Shown here piece by piece: positions 2,242 to 61,119 of a DNA stretch of 64,000 nt. Position 1 is the stretch's first letter; each line of letters opens with the position of its first letter. Made by a program: the position numbers and the translations under genes. The DNA comes from an uncultured Desulfovibrionaceae bacterium. GTDB taxonomy: Bacteria > Bacillota > Dethiobacteria > DTU022 > UBA8154. Location of the stretch: contig CAZRVU010000006.1 in the NCBI GenBank assembly GCA_964603615.1, forward strand, positions 12,249 through 76,248. The letters are read 5' to 3'. Below the pieces are notes generated by a model that saw only the letters and a program-made list of their open reading frames with translations, searched no databases and was not told the origin of the DNA.

Positions 2242-4344
2242 CTAACCCGTGGGAAAAATGATTTTCGAAAAATCGGCCAACTGTAAATAAAGATTTTTGA
2301 TCGACAGCAATAAAGCCAATCTATTGGCACGGATTCTTTCATCCTCCACCATTACTAGCACTTCATCAAAAAAAGTATCCAAGGGGTTTTTTAAGGCCGC
2401 CAGGGCCTTTAGTGTTGCTGCTAAATCATGACTGGCCCAACTATCTTCCACCTTTTTTCTAGTGCTCAGGTACTGCTGGTAAAGCTCTTTTTCCTCCTTT
2501 TCCTGCAGGAGCCCCGGCATATATTCAACTCCGGGTGTTGCCTGCCGGGCCAAATTTGCAACGCGGGTATAAGCGGCGGCAGCCAAAGCAAGATTATCAT
2601 TTTGACGGCTATCTTGCAAAAAAACGACCTGTTGCCAAAGGGAAGCAATTTTCCCCCGGGGCGTATGCAAGACAGCTTCAATTAAATCATAATCTAGCCC
2701 TCTTTCCTGAAAAAGATGGCGCAACCTCTGCCAGGCAAAATCTTTGATTTGAACAAGCAGTTCTTCCCATGATCGCGCTCCGTTCCCCGAAATTTTACTT
2801 TCTGCGAACAGATTTATAGCTTGCCCCAATAATTCCTCAAATGTTATAGGAAAATCATGTTCCAACAATACCTGTAAAAGCCCAAGGCATTGGCGCCGTA
2901 AGGCATAAGGGTCTTGTGAACCGGTCGGGCGCAACCCCAGGGCAAAAAAAGCAGCCAGGTGGTCCGCCTTATCTGCAAGCGCCACTAAAGCCCCCAGTTT
3001 TGTAAGGGGGAGGTTATCACCGGCAAAACGAGGCAGGTAATGCTCAAAAATTGCACAGGCAACAATTTCATCTTCTCCAGATTGAAGAGCATACTCCCGG
3101 CCCATGATTCCTTGAAGCTCTGGAAATTCACCGACCATGCTAGTGGCTAAATCTGCCTTACAAAGATAGGCAGCCCGCTGAATAAAATTTTTTTCTGCAG
3201 GGTCAAGGTTTAGGCGTTCTGCCAAAAATTCACAGGTGGCTACCAGGCGTCTGCTTTTATCATAAAGAGTGCCCAGCCCTTCTTGGAAAAGAATCCTTTT
3301 TAATTTTTCCACTTGTTTACCCAGTGGGGTTTTTAAATCTTCGTTATAAAAAAAACGGGCATCAGCCAGACGGGCCTTCAGAACCCTTTCGTTGCCGCTC
3401 CGGACTGTAGCTGCAGGTGCGACACTATTATTAGAAACAGCAATAAAATAAAAAGAAATATTTCCATGCAGATCCTTTAAAGGAAAATACCGCTGGTGGC
3501 TTTGCATCGTTGTGATCAGGACATCCCGCGGTAACTGCAGGTAAGTTTCCGGAAAAGAACAAAATAAAATTTCTGGTTTTTCTACAAGAAAAGTTACCTC
3601 CTCCAATAGGTCCGCATCGATACAGGCCTTTAACCCTTGTTCTGCCGCAGCTAGCTGCACCTTTTCCTTGATTATTTCACGCCGGTGTTCCGGAGTAACC
3701 AACACGCCGGCTGTTTCCAACAACGGCACATAATCCGCCGGCGTTTCAATTGTTAGGGGTTCCGGTGCCAGTATGCGATGTCCTTTCGTTTGATTGCCGG
3801 CGGTTAATCCGCCATAAGTAAAAGGGATGACCTCTGTTCCGTATAAGCACAGCAACCAACGAATTGGCCTGGGAAACTTGACCTTGCTTTCAGGCCAAGA
3901 CATATTTTTAGGAAAGGTTAGGCTTTTTAATAATGTGGGAAGAAGATCTATTAATATCTTTGCTGTTTTTTTACCGGAAATTTTTTTAATAGCAAACAGA
4001 TGTTCACCTTTTTTTGTTTTTTCAAGACGTAGTTCTTCCACTTTTAAGCCCATCTTACTAGCAAATCCCAGGGCAGCTTTAGTGGGTTTTCCTTCCGGGG
4101 TAAAAGCTACCTGGCGCGCCGGGCCTTTGATTTTTTCTTCCTGGCCACGTTGTTCTTCAGCCAAATCCTTGATAAAAAGGACAAAACGACGTGGCGTCCC
4201 CGCAATTGATACATCTTCAAAGTCAAGACGGTATTCCCGGCAAAGCTTACCTGCTTTTTCCTCTAGTTGTTTTAGCCCTGCGTTCATAAAGCGTGCCGGG
4301 ATTTCCTCACAACCTATTTCTAGTAACAAATCATGCACAGCCAT
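2242..4344 (-). CDS. glyS: Glycine-tRNA ligase beta subunit
   Basis: LLLEIGCEEIPARF, GTPRR, FPRPIRWL, EFPELQGIMGREYA, GSQDPYALRR, IRANRLALL. Confidence 0.97.
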   Translation of the reverse strand: MAVHDLLLEIGCEEIPARFMNAGLKQLEEKAGKLCREYRLDFEDVSIAGTPRRFVLFIKDLAEEQRGQEEKIKGPARQVAFTPEGKPTKAALGFASKMGLKVEELRLEKTKKGEHLFAIKKISGKKTAKILIDLLPTLLKSLTFPKNMSWPESKVKFPRPIRWLLCLYGTEVIPFTYGGLTAGNQTKGHRILAPEPLTIETPADYVPLLETAGVLVTPEHRREIIKEKVQLAAAEQGLKACIDADLLEEVTFLVEKPEILFCSFPETYLQLPRDVLITTMQSHQRYFPLKDLHGNISFYFIAVSNNSVAPAATVRSGNERVLKARLADARFFYNEDLKTPLGKQVEKLKRILFQEGLGTLYDKSRRLVATCEFLAERLNLDPAEKNFIQRAAYLCKADLATSMVGEFPELQGIMGREYALQSGEDEIVACAIFEHYLPRFAGDNLPLTKLGALVALADKADHLAAFFALGLRPTGSQDPYALRRQCLGLLQVLLEHDFPITFEELLGQAINLFAESKISGNGARSWEELLVQIKDFAWQRLRHLFQERGLDYDLIEAVLHTPRGKIASLWQQVVFLQDSRQNDNLALAAAAYTRVANLARQATPGVEYMPGLLQEKEEKELYQQYLSTRKKVEDSWASHDLAATLKALAALKNPLDTFFDEVLVMVEDERIRANRLALLLSIKNLYLQLADFSKIIFPTG

Positions 4345-17623: not shown

Positions 17624-17968
17624 TTATCCTAAAAGTTCATTCATTGGCCGTCCGCCAAGAAGATGAAAATGAAGATGGTTTACCTCCTGTCCCGCATCCT
17701 GGCCACAGTTCATAATCAAGCGATACCCTTTGTTTTGAAGGTTATGTTGCCGTGCAATCTCCCGGCTTACCAAGAGCAGATGCCCTACCAGCTCTTTATG
17801 CTCTATTTGCAGATCATCAAACGTGGGGATATGAAGGCGCGGAATGATGAGGACATGAACAGGAACTACGGGCGCACGATCATAAAAAGCCACCACCTGT
17901 TCGTCCTGGTAGACAAACTGTGAGGGTATTTCACCGCTGATAATTTTACAAAATATGCAATTCTCCAC
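17624..17968 (-). CDS. hinT: Histidine triad nucleotide-binding protein
   Basis: CIFCKII.GEIP, HVLIIP..HI, GQEVNHLHFHLLGGR. Confidence 0.95.
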   Translation of the reverse strand: MENCIFCKIISGEIPSQFVYQDEQVVAFYDRAPVVPVHVLIIPRLHIPTFDDLQIEHKELVGHLLLVSREIARQHNLQNKGYRLIMNCGQDAGQEVNHLHFHLLGGRPMNELLG

Positions 17969-17997
17969 TACTGTTTTCTCCCCCTTTTTTTATGAAT

Positions 17998-18223
17998 GAT
18001 TCCACTGCAAAAATTACATTCTGCTGCATAAAACGAAATTTGCTGGGGCGGGAGCTGTAAAAATCAGCCCATGAAGACGCCACAATTTTGAAGCAAAAAT
18101 GGCAGGACGCCATTTTTAGGGCCTTTTGAAGAGGACGTTCAATTGGCCCGGGCGAAAAATTGTCAGTCGAAGGGATGCTGATTTCAGCGAACGCCTTGCA
18201 AATAGAGTTTATGTAGTAAAATC
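17998..18223 (+). mobile_element. 226-bp MITE-like element, copy A
   Basis: Reverse complement of 26665-26890 (13 mismatches in 226 by manual alignment, no indels). Imperfect terminal inverted repeats GATTCCACTGCAAAAATT / GAGTTTATGTAGTAAAATC. Flanked by the direct repeat ATGAAT (17992-17997 and 18224-18229). Central hairpin AAAAATGGC-AGGAC-GCCATTTTT (18095-18117). Confidence 0.85.
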
Positions 18224-18232
18224 ATGAATATA

Positions 18233-18811
18233 TTATAACATTTTCTCCTTAAGAATCCCGCATAAAATTATATCGGCATAAAGATCGGCTAGCTCTTCCG
18301 GTTTTATCTGCCCCACCGGCTTGTACCAATGATATAACCAGTTGCACATACCCAATACAGCATAAACGGTAGGCAGAATTTCTATCTTTTTAAGGATATT
18401 TTCTTTTATTCCTTCCTCGAATACTGCGGCTACTGCTTTTTCATAATCCCTCTGCCGCCTACGGATAGAAGCCAAATTCCCAGGTAACAGGTGAGCCTGT
18501 TCTGTAAAAAAAATGGCAATATGCGGGGCCTCATCAAAAACTGCCATAATATGATTATAGATAACTTTTCTAATTCTATCCTCCACAGTAATTTTTTCTG
18601 CCAGGAGCTTGTCTAGCCGCTTTTCCGCGGTTTTCATGGTTTGATCAAAAATAGCGTAGAGGATCTCTTCTTTGCTGGTAATATAATAGTATAATGCTGC
18701 CTTGGTCACGTTTAAATCCTCGGCTATATCCTGTACACTTGTAACGGAATATCCTTTCTTATTAAATAAAGTAACTGCCGTATTGATAATTTTCTGTTTG
18801 GTTAGACCCAT
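18233..18811 (-). CDS. TetR/AcrR family regulator (KstR2/PaaR-like C-terminus)
   Basis: HTH GY..TSVQDIAE.LNVTKAALYYY..SKEEIL; C-terminus VLGMCNWLYHWYKP.G..KPEELAD; last gene of the Mo-enzyme operon. Confidence 0.9.
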   Translation of the reverse strand: MGLTKQKIINTAVTLFNKKGYSVTSVQDIAEDLNVTKAALYYYITSKEEILYAIFDQTMKTAEKRLDKLLAEKITVEDRIRKVIYNHIMAVFDEAPHIAIFFTEQAHLLPGNLASIRRRQRDYEKAVAAVFEEGIKENILKKIEILPTVYAVLGMCNWLYHWYKPVGQIKPEELADLYADIILCGILKEKML

Positions 18812-18826
18812 CTTTTATTCCCCCGG

Positions 18827-21220
18827 CTATATTTTACCCAAAGCATGCAAAACTTTCTCTGGTGTGATCGGCAGGCTGTATATACGTACGCCAGCAGCAT
18901 CATGCACAGCATTAGCGATTGCCCCCAAAATCCCGGCCACACAACCTTCACCGACCTCTTTAGCACCAAAGGGGCCACTGGGTTCAATTGTTGCTACAAG
19001 CCCCTCCACAGATTCCGGCGTATCCAGGGAAATAGGTAGTTGGTAACTAAGAAAGGAAGGGTTGAAAAGCTGCCCTTTTTCAAAATATATTTCTTCAGAA
19101 AGGGCTTGCCCCGCCCCCATAGAGGTACAACCATGAATCTGCCCCTCTACAATTATTTTATTGAGAGGGTAACCGCAGTCGTGAAAGGTAACCGCTTTAA
19201 TAAGCCTTATCCGGCCAGTGAGGGTATCAACTTCCACTTCTGCAGCCTGTGCCGCAAAACCATAGGCGCCGGTAAAGAGCCCCTTACCCTTTGCCAGGCT
19301 GGGGTAACGTTCGGTCCGCGGGTATCCCTTGTAGGAACCATGACCGATGACGGGATTACCATCCCTTTTTAAGACGCTGGCTTGAATGGCCTGGGAAAAG
19401 GTAACGGCAAGCTCCGGATTATCCTCCAAAAAAATCATTTTCTTTTTTGTTTTTAATCTGGCTGGATCATTAATCCCCAAAAGTTCTGCAGCACTTTCCA
19501 GTAGTTGGCGTTTGGCATCTGCAGCAGCCTTTTTAACAGCATTACCGGTAACCAGAGCCGTACAGCTTAAAAAACTACCTAAATCAATGGGGCAAAGGTC
19601 CGTATCACCAGCGGCAATACAGACATCTTCTATGCCGATACCCAGCTCTTCGGCCAAAACCTGGCTTAAAGTAGTATAGCTACCCTGACCGATATCCTGT
19701 GCACCCGTAAATAAAGTTGCCGAACCATCGTCATGCAGTTTCACTACAGCGGCAGAAGCAAAGGGATAATACATTGCCCCGCTAAACATGGAGCAGAGAG
19801 AAATTCCCACGCCACGCCGGTAACGATTGCCATTAACCAGCGTTTTAAGTTGCCTTCTCTTTTTTTGCCAGTCAACCGCCGCGGCAGCTCCCGTAAGGCA
19901 TTCCGTTAAACCGCAACTATCCAAGCGATCGCCGTTCGGTAGGATATCCCCTTCTTTACGCACATTTTTATGCATGATCTCCAAAGGATCTAGGCCCAGA
20001 TCCCTGGCAATCAGATCCAGGTGGGAATCGATAGCAAAGCGTATCTGTGGGGCACCGTGGCCGCGCTGTGGGCCGCGTATGCCATTATTCGTATAGATAG
20101 AAAACCCTTCATAACGATAATTGGGCACGTGGTAAACAGGAAAGCTAAAACCGTGACAAAGAAAAATCACTACCGGGCCAGACCCCCGGTAACCACCATT
20201 ATCGGCTATTACTTTTATATCCTGGGCCAAAAGCGTGCCATCCTTCTGTACCCCCGTTTTAATTATTACGTTGATCGGATGGCGCTGACGGGTAGTCATA
20301 AATACTTCTTCCCGGTCTAGCTCAATCTTGACTGGTCGGCCAGTTTGTCTTGAAAGATAGGCTGCGCAGAATTCATAGGGAAAAAGATCGATCTTCCCAC
20401 CAAAAGCCCCGCCTACAAAACTATGATGCACCCTGATCTTACTGGCCGGCAAATCTAGGGTTCTGCTTAAAAAATGTCTTTTCAAGAAGATACCCTGGGT
20501 TGATAACCAGACATGCAACTTTCCTTCCAGGGAATCAAAATTGGCTACAGCAGCATGCGGTTCCATCTGACAATGGGCCGTAGCTTTTAGCTCAAAGCGA
20601 TCCTCACGGCAATAATCCGCCTCCTGAAAAACTTGCTCCACATCACCAAAATTAACAAAGGTGTGCCCGCTTAAGTTATTAACTGCCTTTTCCTGTTTTT
20701 GCTCCCCTTTTTGTTGCGCGACCCCCCACTCTTCCCAGAAAGAGGTACCTGTTAATTGTTCATCATGGATTACAGGTGCATCTTCCTGCATCGCTTCCTC
20801 CGGATGGTAAACAGCCGGCAAGACTTCGTATTCAACCTTTATTAAAGATAGCGCCTTTTCGGCAATTGCTTCACTTTCAGCAGCTACTGCCGCAACTTCG
20901 TCTCCGATATATCTAACCTTATCGACAGCCAGCGGCTGTTCATCAGCGGGATAACGGGGTGTATCGACAAAAGCATAACGCACCGCACGTACATCTTCAC
21001 CGGTAATTACAGCTTTTACACCCGGCAACTGTTGTGCGGCACTGGTATCTACTTTAAGCAGCCTGGCATGGGGATGAGGGCTACGCAGTATTTTCCCATA
21101 AAGCATACCCGGCAACTCAACATCAACCGTGTAGATAGCCTTGCCTGAAGCTTTGGCCGGTCCGTCGACGCGCGGGATCCCTTTACCAATATAATTATAA
21201 TCTTTCACCAAAAACACCAC
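18827..21220 (-). CDS. Xanthine dehydrogenase family molybdopterin-binding subunit, 4-hydroxybenzoyl-CoA reductase alpha (HcrA)-like
   Basis: RVDG..KASG.A.Y..D, GGAFGGK, RGHGAPQ (RGHG as in HcrA rather than RGFG), GAQDIGQG, GPFGAKEVGEG. Confidence 0.85.
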   Translation of the reverse strand: MVFLVKDYNYIGKGIPRVDGPAKASGKAIYTVDVELPGMLYGKILRSPHPHARLLKVDTSAAQQLPGVKAVITGEDVRAVRYAFVDTPRYPADEQPLAVDKVRYIGDEVAAVAAESEAIAEKALSLIKVEYEVLPAVYHPEEAMQEDAPVIHDEQLTGTSFWEEWGVAQQKGEQKQEKAVNNLSGHTFVNFGDVEQVFQEADYCREDRFELKATAHCQMEPHAAVANFDSLEGKLHVWLSTQGIFLKRHFLSRTLDLPASKIRVHHSFVGGAFGGKIDLFPYEFCAAYLSRQTGRPVKIELDREEVFMTTRQRHPINVIIKTGVQKDGTLLAQDIKVIADNGGYRGSGPVVIFLCHGFSFPVYHVPNYRYEGFSIYTNNGIRGPQRGHGAPQIRFAIDSHLDLIARDLGLDPLEIMHKNVRKEGDILPNGDRLDSCGLTECLTGAAAAVDWQKKRRQLKTLVNGNRYRRGVGISLCSMFSGAMYYPFASAAVVKLHDDGSATLFTGAQDIGQGSYTTLSQVLAEELGIGIEDVCIAAGDTDLCPIDLGSFLSCTALVTGNAVKKAAADAKRQLLESAAELLGINDPARLKTKKKMIFLEDNPELAVTFSQAIQASVLKRDGNPVIGHGSYKGYPRTERYPSLAKGKGLFTGAYGFAAQAAEVEVDTLTGRIRLIKAVTFHDCGYPLNKIIVEGQIHGCTSMGAGQALSEEIYFEKGQLFNPSFLSYQLPISLDTPESVEGLVATIEPSGPFGAKEVGEGCVAGILGAIANAVHDAAGVRIYSLPITPEKVLHALGKI

Positions 21221-21264
21221 CTGTCATTTAATAATTAATTCGAAATAATAAAATGGAGATCTGG

Positions 21265-21732
21265 TTAAGAATCAAGAGAGCGAATTGCTTCGATAATCTG
21301 TACAAAACCGGTGCAGCGGCAAATGTTTCCGGCAATCGCTTCTTTTATTTCTGTCGTCGTTGGATGAGGATTTTGTTCCAGCAAACTTTTTGTAACGAGG
21401 ATCATCCCCGGTGAACAAAAACCGCATTGAATAGCCCCTTTTTCATTGAAAGCCTGCTGAATAGGGTGCAGTTTTCCTGCTTGTGCCAGGCCTTCAATTG
21501 TAGTAACTGACTTTTTATCTGCTCTGATTGCCAATAATGAACAAGAGCTGACCGGTTTACCGTCTAAGAGAACCGTGCAAGCCCCACATTCCCCTTGATT
21601 GCAACCTTTTTTTGTTCCCGTCAACCCTAAATCTTCGCGCAGCACCTCCAAAAGTGTCCGCTGCACATCAATTGTCAGGACTTTTTCTTCACCATTTACT
21701 AAAAGCCGGATCGTTTTTTTCATGATAATCAA
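21265..21732 (-). CDS. 2x[2Fe-2S] subunit (HcrC/CoxS-like)
   Basis: GTKKGCNQGECGACTV, QCGFCSPG, GNICRCTG. Confidence 0.95.
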   Translation of the reverse strand: MIIMKKTIRLLVNGEEKVLTIDVQRTLLEVLREDLGLTGTKKGCNQGECGACTVLLDGKPVSSCSLLAIRADKKSVTTIEGLAQAGKLHPIQQAFNEKGAIQCGFCSPGMILVTKSLLEQNPHPTTTEIKEAIAGNICRCTGFVQIIEAIRSLDS

Positions 21733-22745
21733 ATCCCTCCCGCTTTTTTTAAGGCTTCTGTGATCACGATTTTAGCAATTTCCCGCTTGTAACGCGGAGA
21801 AATAAGAGAGGTCTTAATAGGATGTATCTCAGAAGCAGCTATTTGGGCCACCTTAGACAGCAAGTTCATTTCCAACTCCTGCTGCAAAAGCTCTTTCCGT
21901 GCTCTTACCGCTATCACTGGCGCCGGTTCTGCACCGGTAATCACCAGGCAAGCGTCTGCACATATTACTCCATTTACTCCATGCTTCCCTGGTTTTCCGT
22001 TTGCAAGTTTAAGCATTACCGCAACCCCCAACACTGGGAAATCAATGGACTCCCGCATCCTAAATTTTTGATAAATACAATTCACCTGCGGTGTGGGCAG
22101 CGGCACTTCAATACCCGTTAGGATTTCTCCGCTACCCGCCATAATTTTATGAGGATTGCGGCCTTCTGCGGTGTAGAATTGATCTAAAGGCAGGGTTCTC
22201 GTTCCTTCTGGGCCTGCCAAACGAATTTTAGCACCGTAAGCGATTAAAACCGGCGGCAGATCTGCCGAAAAAGTCGCCACGCAACTTCCCTTTTTATTAG
22301 TTACATGGCAAATATCTCCCCCGGCCTTAAAACACTTTTCTCGTGTTGAACGCCAAAATTGCGATTGATTATAGAAGCGACATCTCGTATTCAGACAAAC
22401 ATTGCCACCAATCGTGGCTAGAGGACGTAAAAGCGGGGAGCCGACTTCCCGGGCTGCATGTTTTAAGGCTGGAAATTTTTCTGCAACCAAATCTGAACAA
22501 AGAAGATCCTCCAAAGTGCACATTGCGCCAATTACAAGCAAGCCGTTTTCTTCTTTAATTTCCTTCAAGGATAAAATTTTATCGAGACTGAGCAGGCCGG
22601 ACGGGGTAATCAATCTCTGCTTTAAAGCCGTCAATAAATCCGTTCCCCCGGCAATAATCTGGTAATTATCCTTCAATTCCCCAACCTTGGCCACTGCCTC
22701 CCCTAAACTTTCCGGTTCGAAATAATCGAATTCTAACAACCGCAC
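21729..22745 (-). CDS. FAD-binding subunit with an HcrB-type [4Fe-4S] insertion
   Basis: IAGGTDL, ATIGGNVC, insertion CLNTRCRFYNQSQFWR...CFKAGGDICHV...CVATFSAD, KFRMRESIDF. Confidence 0.88.
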   Translation of the reverse strand: MRLLEFDYFEPESLGEAVAKVGELKDNYQIIAGGTDLLTALKQRLITPSGLLSLDKILSLKEIKEENGLLVIGAMCTLEDLLCSDLVAEKFPALKHAAREVGSPLLRPLATIGGNVCLNTRCRFYNQSQFWRSTREKCFKAGGDICHVTNKKGSCVATFSADLPPVLIAYGAKIRLAGPEGTRTLPLDQFYTAEGRNPHKIMAGSGEILTGIEVPLPTPQVNCIYQKFRMRESIDFPVLGVAVMLKLANGKPGKHGVNGVICADACLVITGAEPAPVIAVRARKELLQQELEMNLLSKVAQIAASEIHPIKTSLISPRYKREIAKIVITEALKKAGGI

Positions 22746-22869
22746 GTCTAACCCTCCTTGTTAAACATTCTTTTGAATATTTACCTGTTAACTACAAAGC
22801 ATACTTTAGAGCAATTTGGTCCTGCCGTAAAAAATTTAATTATCCAGTTAATGTTATAAAAATTAATTC

Positions 22870-22885
22870 TACTAACCGGTTAGTA
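22870..22885. promoter_or_regulatory. Perfect 16-bp palindrome, candidate TetR operator
   Basis: TACTAACCGGTTAGTA, just downstream of the predicted minus-strand promoter of the Mo-enzyme operon. Confidence 0.6.
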
Positions 22886-22897
22886 ACATCTTTTATT

Positions 22898-22926
22898 ATA
22901 GTAACTTACTTAAAGTAATATGTCAA
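22898..22926 (-). promoter_or_regulatory. Sigma-A-like promoter of the hcrB-C-A-tetR-like operon
   Basis: TTGACA (22926-22921), 17-bp spacer, TACTAT (22903-22898). Confidence 0.6.
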
Positions 22927-22941
22927 GCAGAATTTTTTGAA

Positions 22942-22970
22942 TTGACAAAAAGATCTTCCTCATGTATATT
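22942..22970 (+). promoter_or_regulatory. Sigma-A-like promoter of katG
   Basis: TTGACA (22942-22947), 17-bp spacer, TATATT (22965-22970). Confidence 0.7.
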
Positions 22971-23019
22971 CAGATGTAATAATGTAAGTTTTTCAGATAT
23001 TAAAACTTGAGATTAGTGA

Positions 23020-25224
<2,205 letters not shown>

Positions 25225-25374
25225 TTGGTTAATTGTAAATTTAACCTGGATAAACGCTAGAAGTCATTTTTTTAAAAATCAATATATTTAATTTCTGTTA
25301 AACTTGTTACGTTTTGTATTTTTCTGCTGCCCACCACTTTAAAAATCATTTTTCATACTCGTATTATACTTCTT

Positions 25375-25405
25375 AAACCCTTGTTTTTTTATCATTCAAG
25401 GGTTT
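25375..25405 (+). terminator. Hairpin downstream of katG, possible intrinsic terminator
   Basis: AAACCCTTG...CAAGGGTTT followed by CCTTTTT. Confidence 0.45.
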
Positions 25406-25581
25406 CCTTTTTGTCCCTGCATCATCAGGACTATAAGGACTATAGTTTGAAAATGTTTTTTTATGCAGGTAATTCTGTTATAATACTCATTGAAGGGAAG
25501 TAAAGTTTTATTGGATAGGATATTAGATACAGCCAGCAGGCAGGATTTAAAACAATAAATTATCAAAGAAGGACTGAATAA

Positions 25582-26646
25582 ATGTACGGGGAGCTTACTG
25601 TACCGGAAGCAATTAATCTACCTTTCGCAGTCTTTGTCGACCTGCGTTCCCCGGTCGAATACGCGCGAGGTTCCATCCCAGGCGCTTTGAATATCCCGCT
25701 TTTTAGCGATTCAGAGCGCGAAACAATTGGTTTACACTACAAAAAAGATCGGCAGGGCGCCCGTCTAACAGGCCTGAATTTTATAGCTTCCAGACTTCCA
25801 GAAATAATGGATAAAATTTATAGCCTGGGTGCGCATAAAATACCTGTTTTATATTGCTGGAGAGGAGGCCTGCGTAGTAAAAGCTTTTATAATTTGCTGG
25901 CCGCTTCGGGTATCCCCGCTTATAGGTTGCCCGGCGGTTACAAAGCTTATAGGCGTTATATTCTAGATCAGTTGGCTGTATATGAACTTCAAAAACCGCT
26001 CTTTGTACTAAACGGGTTAACCGGCACCGGTAAAACAAAAATTTTGCACCTGCTGCTAACCAGGGGTTGCCCGGGTATTGACCTGGAAAAACTGGCCTGT
26101 CACCGGGGCTCGCTTTTCGGCCATTTAGGTTTTAAGCATAAACGCGGCCAAAAAGATTTTGATGCCCATTTATGGAGCTGTTTGCATCAACATCGAAATG
26201 CACCCTACTTGTTATTTGAGGGTGAGGGGAAAAGGATTGGACCCGTTTACCTGCCGCCTTTTCTCTTTAAGGCAATGCAAAAAGGAACACATATCCTTTT
26301 GACTGCTCCCTTGGCAAAAAGAGTGGAACGACTGCTACAAGAATACACCCCCTCCTCCCTGCAAGATGAAAGCGAACAAATCGAAGGGGCTATACAATCC
26401 CTAAAAAAATACCTGGGAACAAAAACCGTTGACTATTTCCTATCACTATTAAAACAAAAAAATTATGCCGAACTGGTTAGCTCTCTTTGTCAACTTTATT
26501 ATGATCGTCTTTACAGTGAATCAAAACCGGAACAGACCAATTTTGTCCTAACCGTGGATAGCAGCAATCTCCAAAAAGCGACAGACATAATTCAGGATTA
26601 TGTTCAGCAAAAGTTGAATAAAAACAGGATAAAAACACCTGTTTAA
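25582..26646 (+). CDS. mnmH: tRNA 2-selenouridine synthase (SelU/MnmH)
   Basis: Rhodanese VDLRSP.EY..GSIPGALNIPLF, YCWRGGLRS, P-loop GLTGTGKT, IDLE.LA.HRGS.FG, EGEGKRIG. Confidence 0.95.
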   Translation: MYGELTVPEAINLPFAVFVDLRSPVEYARGSIPGALNIPLFSDSERETIGLHYKKDRQGARLTGLNFIASRLPEIMDKIYSLGAHKIPVLYCWRGGLRSKSFYNLLAASGIPAYRLPGGYKAYRRYILDQLAVYELQKPLFVLNGLTGTGKTKILHLLLTRGCPGIDLEKLACHRGSLFGHLGFKHKRGQKDFDAHLWSCLHQHRNAPYLLFEGEGKRIGPVYLPPFLFKAMQKGTHILLTAPLAKRVERLLQEYTPSSLQDESEQIEGAIQSLKKYLGTKTVDYFLSLLKQKNYAELVSSLCQLYYDRLYSESKPEQTNFVLTVDSSNLQKATDIIQDYVQQKLNKNRIKTPV

Positions 26647-26664
26647 AATAATTTTCCTATACTT

Positions 26665-26890
26665 GATTCTACTGCATAAATTCTATTTGCAAGGCGTTCG
26701 CTGAAATCAGCATCCCTTCGACTGACAATTTTTCGCCCGGGCCAATGGAACGTCCTCTTCAAAAGGCCCTAAAAATGGCGTCCTGCCATTTTTGCTTCAA
26801 AATTATGGCGTCTTCATGGGCTGATTTTTACAGCTTACGCTCAAACAAATTTCGTTTTACGCAGCAAAATGTAATTTTTTCAGTGGAATC
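26665..26890 (-). mobile_element. 226-bp MITE-like element, copy B (inverted relative to copy A)
   Basis: TIRs GATTCTACTGCATAAATT ... AATTTTTTCAGTGGAATC (15/18 match); flanked by the direct repeat TATACTT (26658-26664 and 26891-26897). Confidence 0.88.
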
Positions 26891-26955
26891 TATACTTATT
26901 TTAAACAAAACAAACAAAGTATTGCCAGGTGAAAACCAGAAAGGAGTTGGAATTC

Positions 26956-27330
26956 ATGAACGTTTACGATTATGCTCACAGCTTAGCGAAAGCGATTAAA
27001 TTGTCGCCGGAGTACGCCAGTTTTAAGGAATGCCAGGACAAGTTGGAAAAAGATCAGGGTGCCAAGGAGATGCTAACAGATTTTAGAAAAAGCCAGTTAG
27101 AGCTGCAAAAACAAAAAATATCCGGCCTAGAGGTAGCACCGGAACAGGAAAAACGCCTGACACAAAGGTGGGAGATTATTAACCTGAATCTTATTGTTAA
27201 AGAGTATCTGGAAGCAGAGTATCGCTTTAGTGTCCTGCTTACAGACGTGCAAAGAATAATTGGCGAAGCTCTGGAAGAGATCTTTACCCAACAGGTACCA
27301 GAACAATTTTCCTTCCAGGATGAAGAATAA
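26956..27330 (+). CDS. YlbF/YmcA family regulator
   Basis: MNVYDYAHSLAKAIK.SPEY..FKE...EYLEAEYRFSVLL.DVQRII; RBS AAGGAG before the ATG at 26956. Confidence 0.88.
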   Translation: MNVYDYAHSLAKAIKLSPEYASFKECQDKLEKDQGAKEMLTDFRKSQLELQKQKISGLEVAPEQEKRLTQRWEIINLNLIVKEYLEAEYRFSVLLTDVQRIIGEALEEIFTQQVPEQFSFQDEE

Positions 27331-51936: not shown

Positions 51937-52022
51937 TGGTGCGAGAGGGGGGATTTGAACCCCCACACCCTTGCGGACACCAGGTCCTGAACCTGGCGCG
52001 TCTGCCGTTCCGCCACTCTCGC
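51937..52022 (-). tRNA. tRNA-Leu(CAG)
   Basis: GCGAGAG acceptor, anticodon arm CCAGG-TTCAGGA-CCTGG, long variable arm, GGTTCAAATCC, encoded CCA. Confidence 0.96.
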
Positions 52023-52030
52023 AAAAAAAA

Positions 52031-52106
52031 TGGTGAGCCATGGAGGATTCGAACCTCCGACACCCTGATTAAAAGTCAGGTGCTCTGCCAACTGAGCTAA
52101 TGGCCC
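52031..52106 (-). tRNA. tRNA-Lys(TTT)
   Basis: Anticodon arm CCTGA-CTTTTAA-TCAGG, GGTTCGAATCC, CCA. Confidence 0.97.
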
Positions 52107-52241
52107 ATATTACCATCCTTCATAGCCTCTGACCTTTCCCAGCATTACCTGACCTTGCACTAATCTAAACGTCACTAGAAAATAAGACTAGAAGAATATT
52201 AAATTAAAAAATGGAGGCAAAAAACTATTTACTAAATATAA

Positions 52242-52328
52242 TGGTGGAGAGGACTGGATTTGAACCAGTGAAGGCAACGCCAGCAGATTTACAGTCTGCC
52301 CCCTTTGGCCGAACTTGGGTACCTCTCC
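52242..52328 (-). tRNA. tRNA-Tyr(GTA)
   Basis: Anticodon arm GCAGA-CTGTAAA-TCTGC, long variable arm, CCA. Confidence 0.96.
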
Positions 52329-52346
52329 ATGTCAGACAATTTTTCC

Positions 52347-52423
52347 TGGAGCCGACGATGGGACTCGAACCCGCAACCTGCTGATTACAAATCAGCTGCT
52401 CTAGCCTGTTGAGCTACGTCGGC
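52347..52423 (-). tRNA. tRNA-Thr(TGT)
   Basis: Anticodon arm GCTGA-TTTGTAA-TCAGC, GGTTCGAGTCC, CCA. Confidence 0.96.
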
Positions 52424-57380: not shown

Positions 57381-57457
57381 TGGTCGGGGCGACAGGATTT
57401 GAACCTGCGACCTCTTGACCCCCAGTCAAGCGCGCTACCAAGCTGCGCCACGCCCCG
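57381..57457 (-). tRNA. tRNA-Pro(GGG)
   Basis: CGGGGCG acceptor, anticodon arm CTTGA-CTGGGGG-TCAAG, GGTTCAAATCC, CCA; promoter TTGACT-17-TAGAAT at 57502-57474. Confidence 0.96.
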
Positions 57458-60505: not shown

Positions 60506-60581
60506 TGGCAGGGGAGACAGGACTTGAACCCGCAGCCTGCGGTTTTGGAGACCGCTGCTCTGCCAGTTGAGCTACTCCCCT
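60506..60581 (-). tRNA. tRNA-Trp(CCA)
   Basis: Anticodon arm GCGGT-CTCCAAA-ACCGC, GGTTCAAGTCC, CCA; promoter TTGACA-17-TAAAAT at 60620-60592. Confidence 0.96.
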
Positions 60582-60814: not shown

Positions 60815-61000
60815 GTGTAACAGCTAGAACATAAGGATAGCTCGTCATCGAAATGTAAGCGGGCATATTTGAGCAGGGATGGAGTGTAACGACCAGCTAG
60901 AGCACAAGGATAGCTCGTCGTCGAAATGTAAGCGGGTATATTTGAGCAGGGATGGAGTGTAACGACCAACTAAAGCATAAGGATAGCCCGTCGTTGAAAC
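60815..61000 (+). repeat. Non-coding tandem repeat, about 2.5 x 73 bp
   Basis: Units 60821-60893 and 60894-60966 (69/73 identical), partial unit 60967-61000 (28/34), plus a GTGTAA remnant at 60815-60820. Confidence 0.95.
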
Positions 61001-61119
61001 ATTAGCTGTCCTAGCAGGATTGTTTGGAAAACATCATAAATAATTTTATGAAAGGAGGCAGGGCGATTTCTTTTCCTAGCCCCAACCCAGGGGCCGGGGA
61101 TCAAAGTCGCTTATTTTTC

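Follow-up and report, generated by a model that had tools for sequence, protein, structure and literature searches.

Inverted copies of a probable new MITE family in an uncultured Dethiobacteria-related bacterium

Two inverted copies of a 226-bp sequence bracket an 8.4-kb block of genes in a 64,000-nt stretch of contig CAZRVU010000006.1 (positions 12,249 to 76,248; hereafter, the window), raising the question of whether the pair represents the arms of one larger element or two separate arrivals. [quoted passage not shown] The repeats agree with MITEs in size, lack of a transposase gene, terminal inverted repeats (TIRs), target-site duplications (TSDs) and presence/absence at orthologous sites. 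Each copy in the window is an insertion of its own into a short spacer between co-directional genes, namely, between the genes for a TetR-family regulator (tetR) and an HIT-family protein in one case, and between selU and a ylbF-like gene in the other. Both insertions postdate the split from relatives with 80-83% protein identity, and the 8.4 kb between the copies was neither inverted nor brought in by them.

17998..18223, + strand: MITE copy 1, 226 bp, left (L) end to right (R) end; flanked by the tetR stop and the start of HIT, which are on the - strand
26665..26890, - strand: MITE copy 2, 226 bp, in the orientation opposite to that of copy 1; flanked by the selU stop and the start of the ylbF-like gene, which are on the + strand
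17992..17997, unstranded: left TSD of copy 1 (ATGAAT), identical to 18224-18229; read from the sequence
18224..18229, unstranded: right TSD of copy 1 (ATGAAT); read from the sequence
26658..26664, unstranded: left TSD of copy 2 (TATACTT); read as the reverse complement
26891..26897, unstranded: right TSD of copy 2 (TATACTT); read from the sequence

The inverted pair and its target-site duplications

A repeat search of the window recovered a single long inverted pair (17998-18230 and 26658-26890), 94% complementary and spaced by 8427 nt. By direct count, 17998-18223 and 26665-26890 are reverse complements that match at 213 of the 226 positions with zero indels; thus, our recount agrees with an earlier reading of this DNA (the sequence-only reading), which had described two inverted 226-bp copies with imperfect TIRs and separate TSDs. 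The 13 mismatches are located at element positions 11, 24, 31, 46, 48, 50, 54, 55, 86, 144, 210, 217 and 222, with just two of them falling within positions 56-209. No third copy, or fragment longer than ~20 nt, is found elsewhere in the window, and the repeat D3 (50576/62868), considered as a relevant repeat, proved to be a chance match inside coding sequence. The G+C content is 43.8% for the element versus 43.4% for the window.

The ends of copy 1 are GATTCCACTG and, as the reverse complement, GATTTTACTA; those of copy 2 are GATTCCACTG and, again as the reverse complement, GATTCTACTG. Over the first 23 nt, the TIRs match at 16 positions in copy 1 and at 18 positions in copy 2. All four termini conform to an 18-nt end pattern, which is matched five times in the window against 0.85 matches expected; the fifth match (32172) was rejected as an element end, being a chance occurrence within dnaK. 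One end consensus fits the four window termini as well as the termini of three family members from metagenomes, L028-L030, which are described below. Both TSDs are perfect and directly abut the element ends. Exact repeats at the junctions would arise by chance with a probability of ~2.7e-4 for 6 nt and 7e-5 for 7 nt, or ~2e-8 jointly. The duplication of copy 2 is 7 bp long and extends to 8 nt (CTATACTT) only when the terminal C is taken as shared, that is, counted twice.

These features are consistent with the following course of insertion. A transposase encoded elsewhere would act in trans by binding the terminal motifs; the element would enter A/T-rich intergenic DNA at cuts staggered by 6, sometimes 7, bp, and repair of these cuts would yield the flanking duplications. 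The movement would probably be of the DDE type, by either a cut-and-paste or a copy route.

Empty orthologous sites

The genes that flank the two copies are as follows.

17624..17968, - strand: HIT-family protein; start 29 nt past copy 1, with a ribosome-binding site (RBS), GGGGGAG, 7 nt past the TSD
18233..18811, - strand: TetR-family regulator (Pfam TetR_N and TetR_C_24); stop codon (18233-18235) 9 nt from copy 1
25582..26646, + strand: SelU/MnmH, tRNA 2-selenouridine synthase (PF26341 AAA_SelU and homologue names); stop codon (26644-26646) 18 nt before copy 2
26956..27330, + strand: YlbF/YmcA-like protein, 124 aa; downstream of copy 2

The distances of 9 nt and 18 nt measured here bear out the earlier placement of the copies 9-18 nt after the stop codons of tetR and selU. 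In the closest relative, which is represented by four assemblies (L036-L039) and has a TetR with 83% identity, the HIT gene directly follows tetR, starting 42 nt after it, and the element is absent. The alignment of the tetR-HIT junction between the window and these assemblies contains a gap of 232 columns, which equals the 226 bp of the element plus 6 bp. Both genomes have AAAATGTTATAATA at the tetR end, and the distance from this sequence to the HIT start is 33 nt in the relative and also 33 nt in the window once the element and one ATTCAT are subtracted. The target itself, read on the transcribed strand, is present as a single, diverged ATGCGT in the relative versus two copies of ATTCAT in the window. 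The relative thus holds one copy of the target; an empty site with both halves of the supposed TSD, which the sequence-only reading had named as speaking against insertion, is not what is seen.

The second junction shows the same pattern. selU and ylbF adjoin and are co-directional in every relative (L031-L035, L040-41), with spacers of 39-69 nt that contain no element, compared to a spacer of 309 nt in the window (76 + 226 + 7). A search of the syntenic loci of the relatives with the invariant block of the family, CATTTTTGCTTCAAAATT plus ATTGAACGTCCTNTTC, detected no copy of the element. Given that the tetR-HIT and selU-ylbF adjacencies exist without the element in relatives, both junctions predate the insertions, and the proposal that the copies are MITEs that inserted independently is upheld at both sites. 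That the element was recently active holds in a relative sense only: three samples have the insertions fixed, and relatives with 80-83% protein identity lack them.

Some further differences from the relatives were observed around these sites. The C-terminus of TetR in the window is three codons longer than that in the relative (192 versus 189 aa; 18233-18244 compared to L036 1952-1963), owing to substitutions just upstream of the insertion site. In L036, a short tandem repeat of CTAGCACTACAG occupies positions 1-59, just after selU, and the contig ends there; this post-selU sequence is unlike the selU-ylbF spacer of L031, so that another repeat or a rearrangement may occupy the site. More broadly, this lineage shows a hot spot of rearrangement in the gene order around HIT/selU (window 17624-26646 compared to L032, L033-35, L036 and L040-42). 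The block for the three-subunit XDH-type enzyme, together with tetR, flanks HIT on one side or the other, or is missing; the closest relative has tetR by itself, and katG occurs in the window only.

Anatomy, coding status and family members

A terminal motif of ~26 nt (consensus GATTCYACTGCATAAAYTCYATTTGC) is present at both arm ends. Folding combined with a motif search indicates that the R end pairs with an inner copy of the motif (element positions 20-35) and not with the outermost 20 nt of the L end; therefore, the core of the element is an imperfect palindrome of ~206 nt. Positions 1-16 hold the outer motif, which duplicates the inner one in tandem at a distance of 19 nt, and its presence at one end adds 19-20 nt to the core, bringing the element to 226 nt. 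Because the TSDs abut the outer motif, it is this copy that is the functional end in both window copies.

17998..18013, + strand: L-end outer copy of the terminal motif (GATTCCACTGCAAAAA); left unpaired by the consensus fold and missing from the 206-nt variant L030
18017..18032, + strand: inner tandem copy of the terminal motif (CATTCTGCTGCATAAA); 19 nt inward of the outer one, with 2 mismatches to the end consensus
18198..18223, - strand: R-end TIR of copy 1, GATTTTACTACATAAACTCTATTTGC when read on the - strand; differs from the 26-nt end consensus of the family at 2 positions
18095..18117, unstranded: central hairpin B of copy 1, AAAAATGGC-AGGAC-GCCATTTTT; -10 / -11.9 kcal/mol, 5-bp core -5.2; near-invariant in the family
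26771..26793, unstranded: central hairpin B of copy 2; identical to that of copy 1
18119..18149, unstranded: central hairpin A, GGGCC...TTGAA-GAGGACG-TTCAA...GGCCC; -16.3 / -13.3 kcal/mol

The predicted fold is rod-like on either strand, with energies of -80.5 kcal/mol (copy 1, z = -5.2) and -71.6 kcal/mol (z = -4.6). The loops of hairpins A and B have the core AGGAC in common (GTCCT on the other strand), which is closed by a C-G pair. This double-hairpin centre is found at window positions 18095-18149 and 26739-26793 and also in L028-L030. Across the family, 84% of the columns are invariant in the centre versus 68% and 43% in the arms, that is, hosts differ less in the centre than at the transposition ends. 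Only 2 of the 78 consensus pairs show a compensatory change, and the covariation term is unfavourable; the fold is kept through sequence conservation, and selection on pairing is not demonstrated.

One reading frame is open through the whole element in both window copies, and 8 of the 13 nucleotide differences between them alter the amino acid in this frame. In L028-L030, the frame is interrupted by indels and stop codons, from which we conclude that the element is non-coding. The open frame has no protein homologue among 5.8 billion clusters, and no Rfam family matches the element. An 84-aa open reading frame (ORF; 26745-26999, + strand) begins in copy 2 and extends into the ylbF leader, and gene callers list 62-63-aa fragments of it on Logan contigs; this ORF is an artefact of the open frame of the element and not a gene.

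The open frame served as the query for a mismatch-tolerant scan of metagenome contigs, with confirmation by tblastn. Family members were found at at least six metagenome loci (L025-L030), with identities of 76-87%, and there are probably more. L029 is full length and 87% identical to copy 1, and L030 is a 206-nt form; the two are located 9.3 kb apart on a single 44-kb contig (ERZ773359.840). L028, on a 50-kb contig, is 84% identical and includes (2986-3256) an extra 33-nt tandem duplication of the left-end motif, which results in three end motifs in a row, as well as a 13-nt partial duplication at the right end. These end duplications suggest slippage or, possibly, aberrant transposition at repeated termini. 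L025-L027 correspond to one locus in three metagenomes, a diverged, truncated half-copy with 76% identity. An RBS and an ATG follow this half-copy, making it a candidate for an autonomous parent; it was rejected as such, being a truncated remnant at a locus whose ORFs contain no transposase. Exact scanning of JGI metagenomes with a 20-mer gave no match, nor did BLASTN of the element against plasmids and phages, and neither the end pattern nor the open frame nor the invariant block was matched in scans of viral contigs. A literature search for MITEs in Dethiobacter found none reported.

The neighbours of the family members are unrelated to those in the window, comprising nadC/asnC, a pyruvyl transferase and a hydrolase/M20 peptidase pair, with insertion points after nadC, before the pyruvyl transferase gene, and between the hydrolase and M20 peptidase genes. 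The flanks of L028, taken in a 6-bp register, read AATAAT/AATCAT (5/6). All five insertions are situated between co-directional genes, 1-18 nt past a stop codon. The two window copies share one orientation relative to the flanking transcription, as the sequence-only reading had stated, yet this does not extend to a rule, the ratio over the five insertions being 3:2.

There are signs of additional copies, or of related sequences, in the assemblies of this organism. In three short-read assemblies (SRR8925753, SRR20950113 and DRR835046), the flanks are identical, and all three break inside the element. Under the rule for a k=31 graph, by which branching occurs at a shared 30-mer, the break on the ylbF side (26806) is exactly where two copies predict it, whereas the breaks at 18020, 18189 and 26691 come 62, 12 and 20 nt early, respectively; the DRR835046 break is 5 nt early. 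With three of the four breaks too early for two copies, the samples must contain further k-mer-sharing sequence, which could be extra copies or variants from co-resident strains, the samples belonging to a metagenome series. For the HIT-side break (17991-18020), the implied shared 30-mer, TATGAATGATTCCACTGCAAAAATTACATT, takes in 7 nt of unique flank (TATGAAT); a junction of an excised circle or of tandem copies was rejected as the cause because it would require C, not T, before ATGAAT. The other early-break stretches are 18189-18218 and 26662-26691. Two copies are counted in the window and two on contig ERZ773359.840.

Around the window, Logan contigs are unbroken from ~-9.8 kb to +68.4 kb, save at tRNA genes and a tandem repeat. 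The right-hand end of a Logan contig (~window 68392), considered as a possible third copy, is not MITE-like. The tandem repeat (60821-61013) consists of three 73-nt units (95% and ~74% identity) just downstream of a tRNA gene (60509-60581) and breaks a Logan contig at 60939. Six tRNA genes are present (51940-52423, 57384-57457 and 60509-60581), four of them clustered at 51.9-52.4 kb, and this cluster terminates a 25-kb Logan contig near 52007.

The host itself belongs to a poorly sampled lineage, its proteins being singletons at 90% identity. The SelU and TetR homologues come from metagenome-assembled genomes named as Dethiobacteria, Dethiobacter or 'Bacillota bacterium', and the lineage is uncultured, Dethiobacteria-like and encountered in metagenomes of the bioreactor and biogas type.

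Origin, alternative readings and possible function

The element resembles prokaryotic MITEs, such as Correia of Neisseria, RUP of S. pneumoniae and MITEAba12, in size (here, 206-226 bp), TIRs, TSDs, intergenic location, absence of coding capacity, strong folding of the transcript and presence/absence between related genomes (reviewed in PMC10969869 and PMC3184786). It differs from these elements in having a tandem duplicate of the terminal motif at one end and a seemingly low copy number, and it shows no sequence likeness to the collections searched, other than the at least six metagenome loci. The TSDs are also distinct, being 6-7 bp long here, compared to TA in Correia and RUP and 9 bp in MITEAba12. 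Among the known families of insertion sequences (IS), IS6/IS26 has ends (type GGTTCTGTTGCAAAGT) that resemble those of the element: compared to the IS1216 end (GGTTCTGTTGCAAAGTTT, verified in pTEF3), 12 of the first 14 positions agree in the L028 end, GGTTCTGCTGCATA, and 10 of 14 agree in the consensus of the MITE family, GATTCYACTGCATA, a likeness that is short and the best of about ten ends compared and, hence, may be due to chance. IS6-family elements move by cointegrate formation and generate 8-bp duplications, whereas the duplications here are 6 and 7 bp, the 6-bp length for copy 1 being fixed by the 232-nt gap, and no IS6-type transposase was found nearby. An IS6 origin thus appears to be a weak lead. 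The ISNCY/ISDol1 group, listed in the ISfinder family table with direct repeats of 6-7 bp, which would agree with the TSDs seen here, is a lead only.

Several observations weigh against the identification of the repeats as a MITE family. No transposase with matching ends (of the types GATTCYACTG and GATTCYACTGCATAAAY) was found in the window, at 45 loci, or in plasmids, phages and viral contigs, with genomes and metagenomes not scanned by ends, and a BLASTN search of plasmids with the 47-nt end consensus (E<=10) returned chance matches only. TSD length differs between the insertions (6 versus 7/8), and the flanking repeats are weak at L030 (4/6) and unrecognisable at L029 (3/6). The copies proven in the host genome number two, for a local density of 2 per ~78 kb, and strain variants are a possible source of the early assembly breaks, given that the samples are probably metagenomes. 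Finally, an exact scan of GTDB species representatives with the hairpin 19-mer of the window type yielded 16 matches, all attributable to chance (19-24 nt); this 19-mer is too window-specific, so that the variant of L028-L030, which differs by one base, would escape the scan.

Could the copies instead be the arms of an 8.9-kb composite transposon or invertible segment that imported, or flips, the tetR-XDH-katG-selU block? The inverted arrangement fits such an element, as does the enclosed gene content (three XDH-type molybdenum hydroxylase subunits, katG and selU), given that the bracketed XDH subunits, tetR and katG vary in presence and position among relatives, and copy 1 lies exactly at the tetR edge of the block. 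However, each copy is flanked by its own matched duplication, the outer flanks, ATGAAT and TATACTT, are unlike each other, the selU-ylbF adjacency across copy 2 is ancestral and in the same orientation in all relatives, and the tetR-HIT adjacency across copy 1 is present without the element in the closest relative. We consider this scenario highly improbable: composite mobilisation, which had been raised for the block, is refuted as its origin, whereas the ancestral orientation of the 8.4 kb, also proposed earlier, is corroborated by the matched duplications and by the selU-ylbF order kept in relatives. There is hardly any likelihood that the repeats spread without a transposase of the conventional kind, either as REP/REPIN-like or IS200/IS605-type palindromic elements (PATE) mobilised by HUH/RAYT proteins, or as a duplicated gene for a structured non-coding RNA. 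The entire element is indeed a long imperfect hairpin, and a DDE transposase partner was not found; nevertheless, HUH-type elements and REPINs produce neither TSDs nor conventional TIRs, as opposed to the exact 6/7-bp duplications seen here and the empty site that differs by exactly the element plus 6 bp. An RNA gene, in turn, is hard to reconcile with the lack of an Rfam match, and presence/absence at conserved junctions is incompatible with vertical inheritance.

An alternative of a different kind accepts a mobile element but posits that its double hairpin was co-opted at operon junctions, as a terminator or attenuator (possibly bidirectional) or as an RNA-stabilising or protein-binding structure, and that the insertions were kept for this reason. 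In favour of co-option, conservation within the element is highest in the centre, both hairpin loops carry the GTCCT/AGGAC core, TTTTTGCTTC follows hairpin B on the transcribed strand of the window, and all five insertions lie shortly past a stop codon between co-directional genes. The idea is not new, and it is accepted that MITEs such as SPRITE may resemble terminators (PMC10969869; PMC3049150). Terminator-type interspersed small repeats, in which a central hairpin followed by a T-run is placed after genes, offer a precedent for the 'portable terminator' suggested for this element; compared to them, hairpin B has a core of 5 bp with 3 G-C pairs (-5.2 kcal/mol), reaching -10 to -12 only when A/U pairs are included, its U-tract is sequestered by an upstream A-tract, and a consensus terminator scan was negative in both copies on both strands. 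Neither does either copy contain a promoter according to a consensus scan. With HIT starting 29 nt after copy 1 and no promoter-like site between them, efficient termination would silence this gene, so that HIT is probably expressed by read-through. The 3:2 orientation ratio and the scarcity of compensatory changes also speak against co-option, and the conserved centre is explicable by gene conversion between copies or by a palindromic origin. On balance, co-option appears unlikely, and of the earlier claim that a central hairpin could terminate transcription in either direction, the hairpin stands, whereas the terminator is weak. The most likely effect of the MITE on its neighbours would be that of a structured, largely read-through insert in the transcript.

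A bolder version is quite doubtful: the double-hairpin centre, with its C-GTCCT-G / C-AGGAC-G loops, might be an exapted module that was spread to post-stop operon junctions, where it would function as a binding site (such as a CsrA-type GGA-loop decoy, in one orientation) or an attenuator, and the inverted pair could, in addition, flip the katG/XDH/selU block. Three features would merit a second look: the double-hairpin centre, whose loop cores are identical, the tandem arrangement of the terminal motif, and the steady post-stop position.

The element described here is of an ordinary kind and leaves the general understanding of MITEs unchanged. For the organism, it accounts for the breaks in short-read assemblies at both sites, and the ORF at 26745-26999 and similar calls within the element should not be counted as genes in annotation. 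The element could also act as a strain-typing marker, and the two inverted copies make the block with the catalase-peroxidase, the molybdenum hydroxylase and SelU a possible substrate for inversion. Overall, these findings document, for an uncultured and little-studied lineage of Bacillota, a MITE family whose empty sites are proven.

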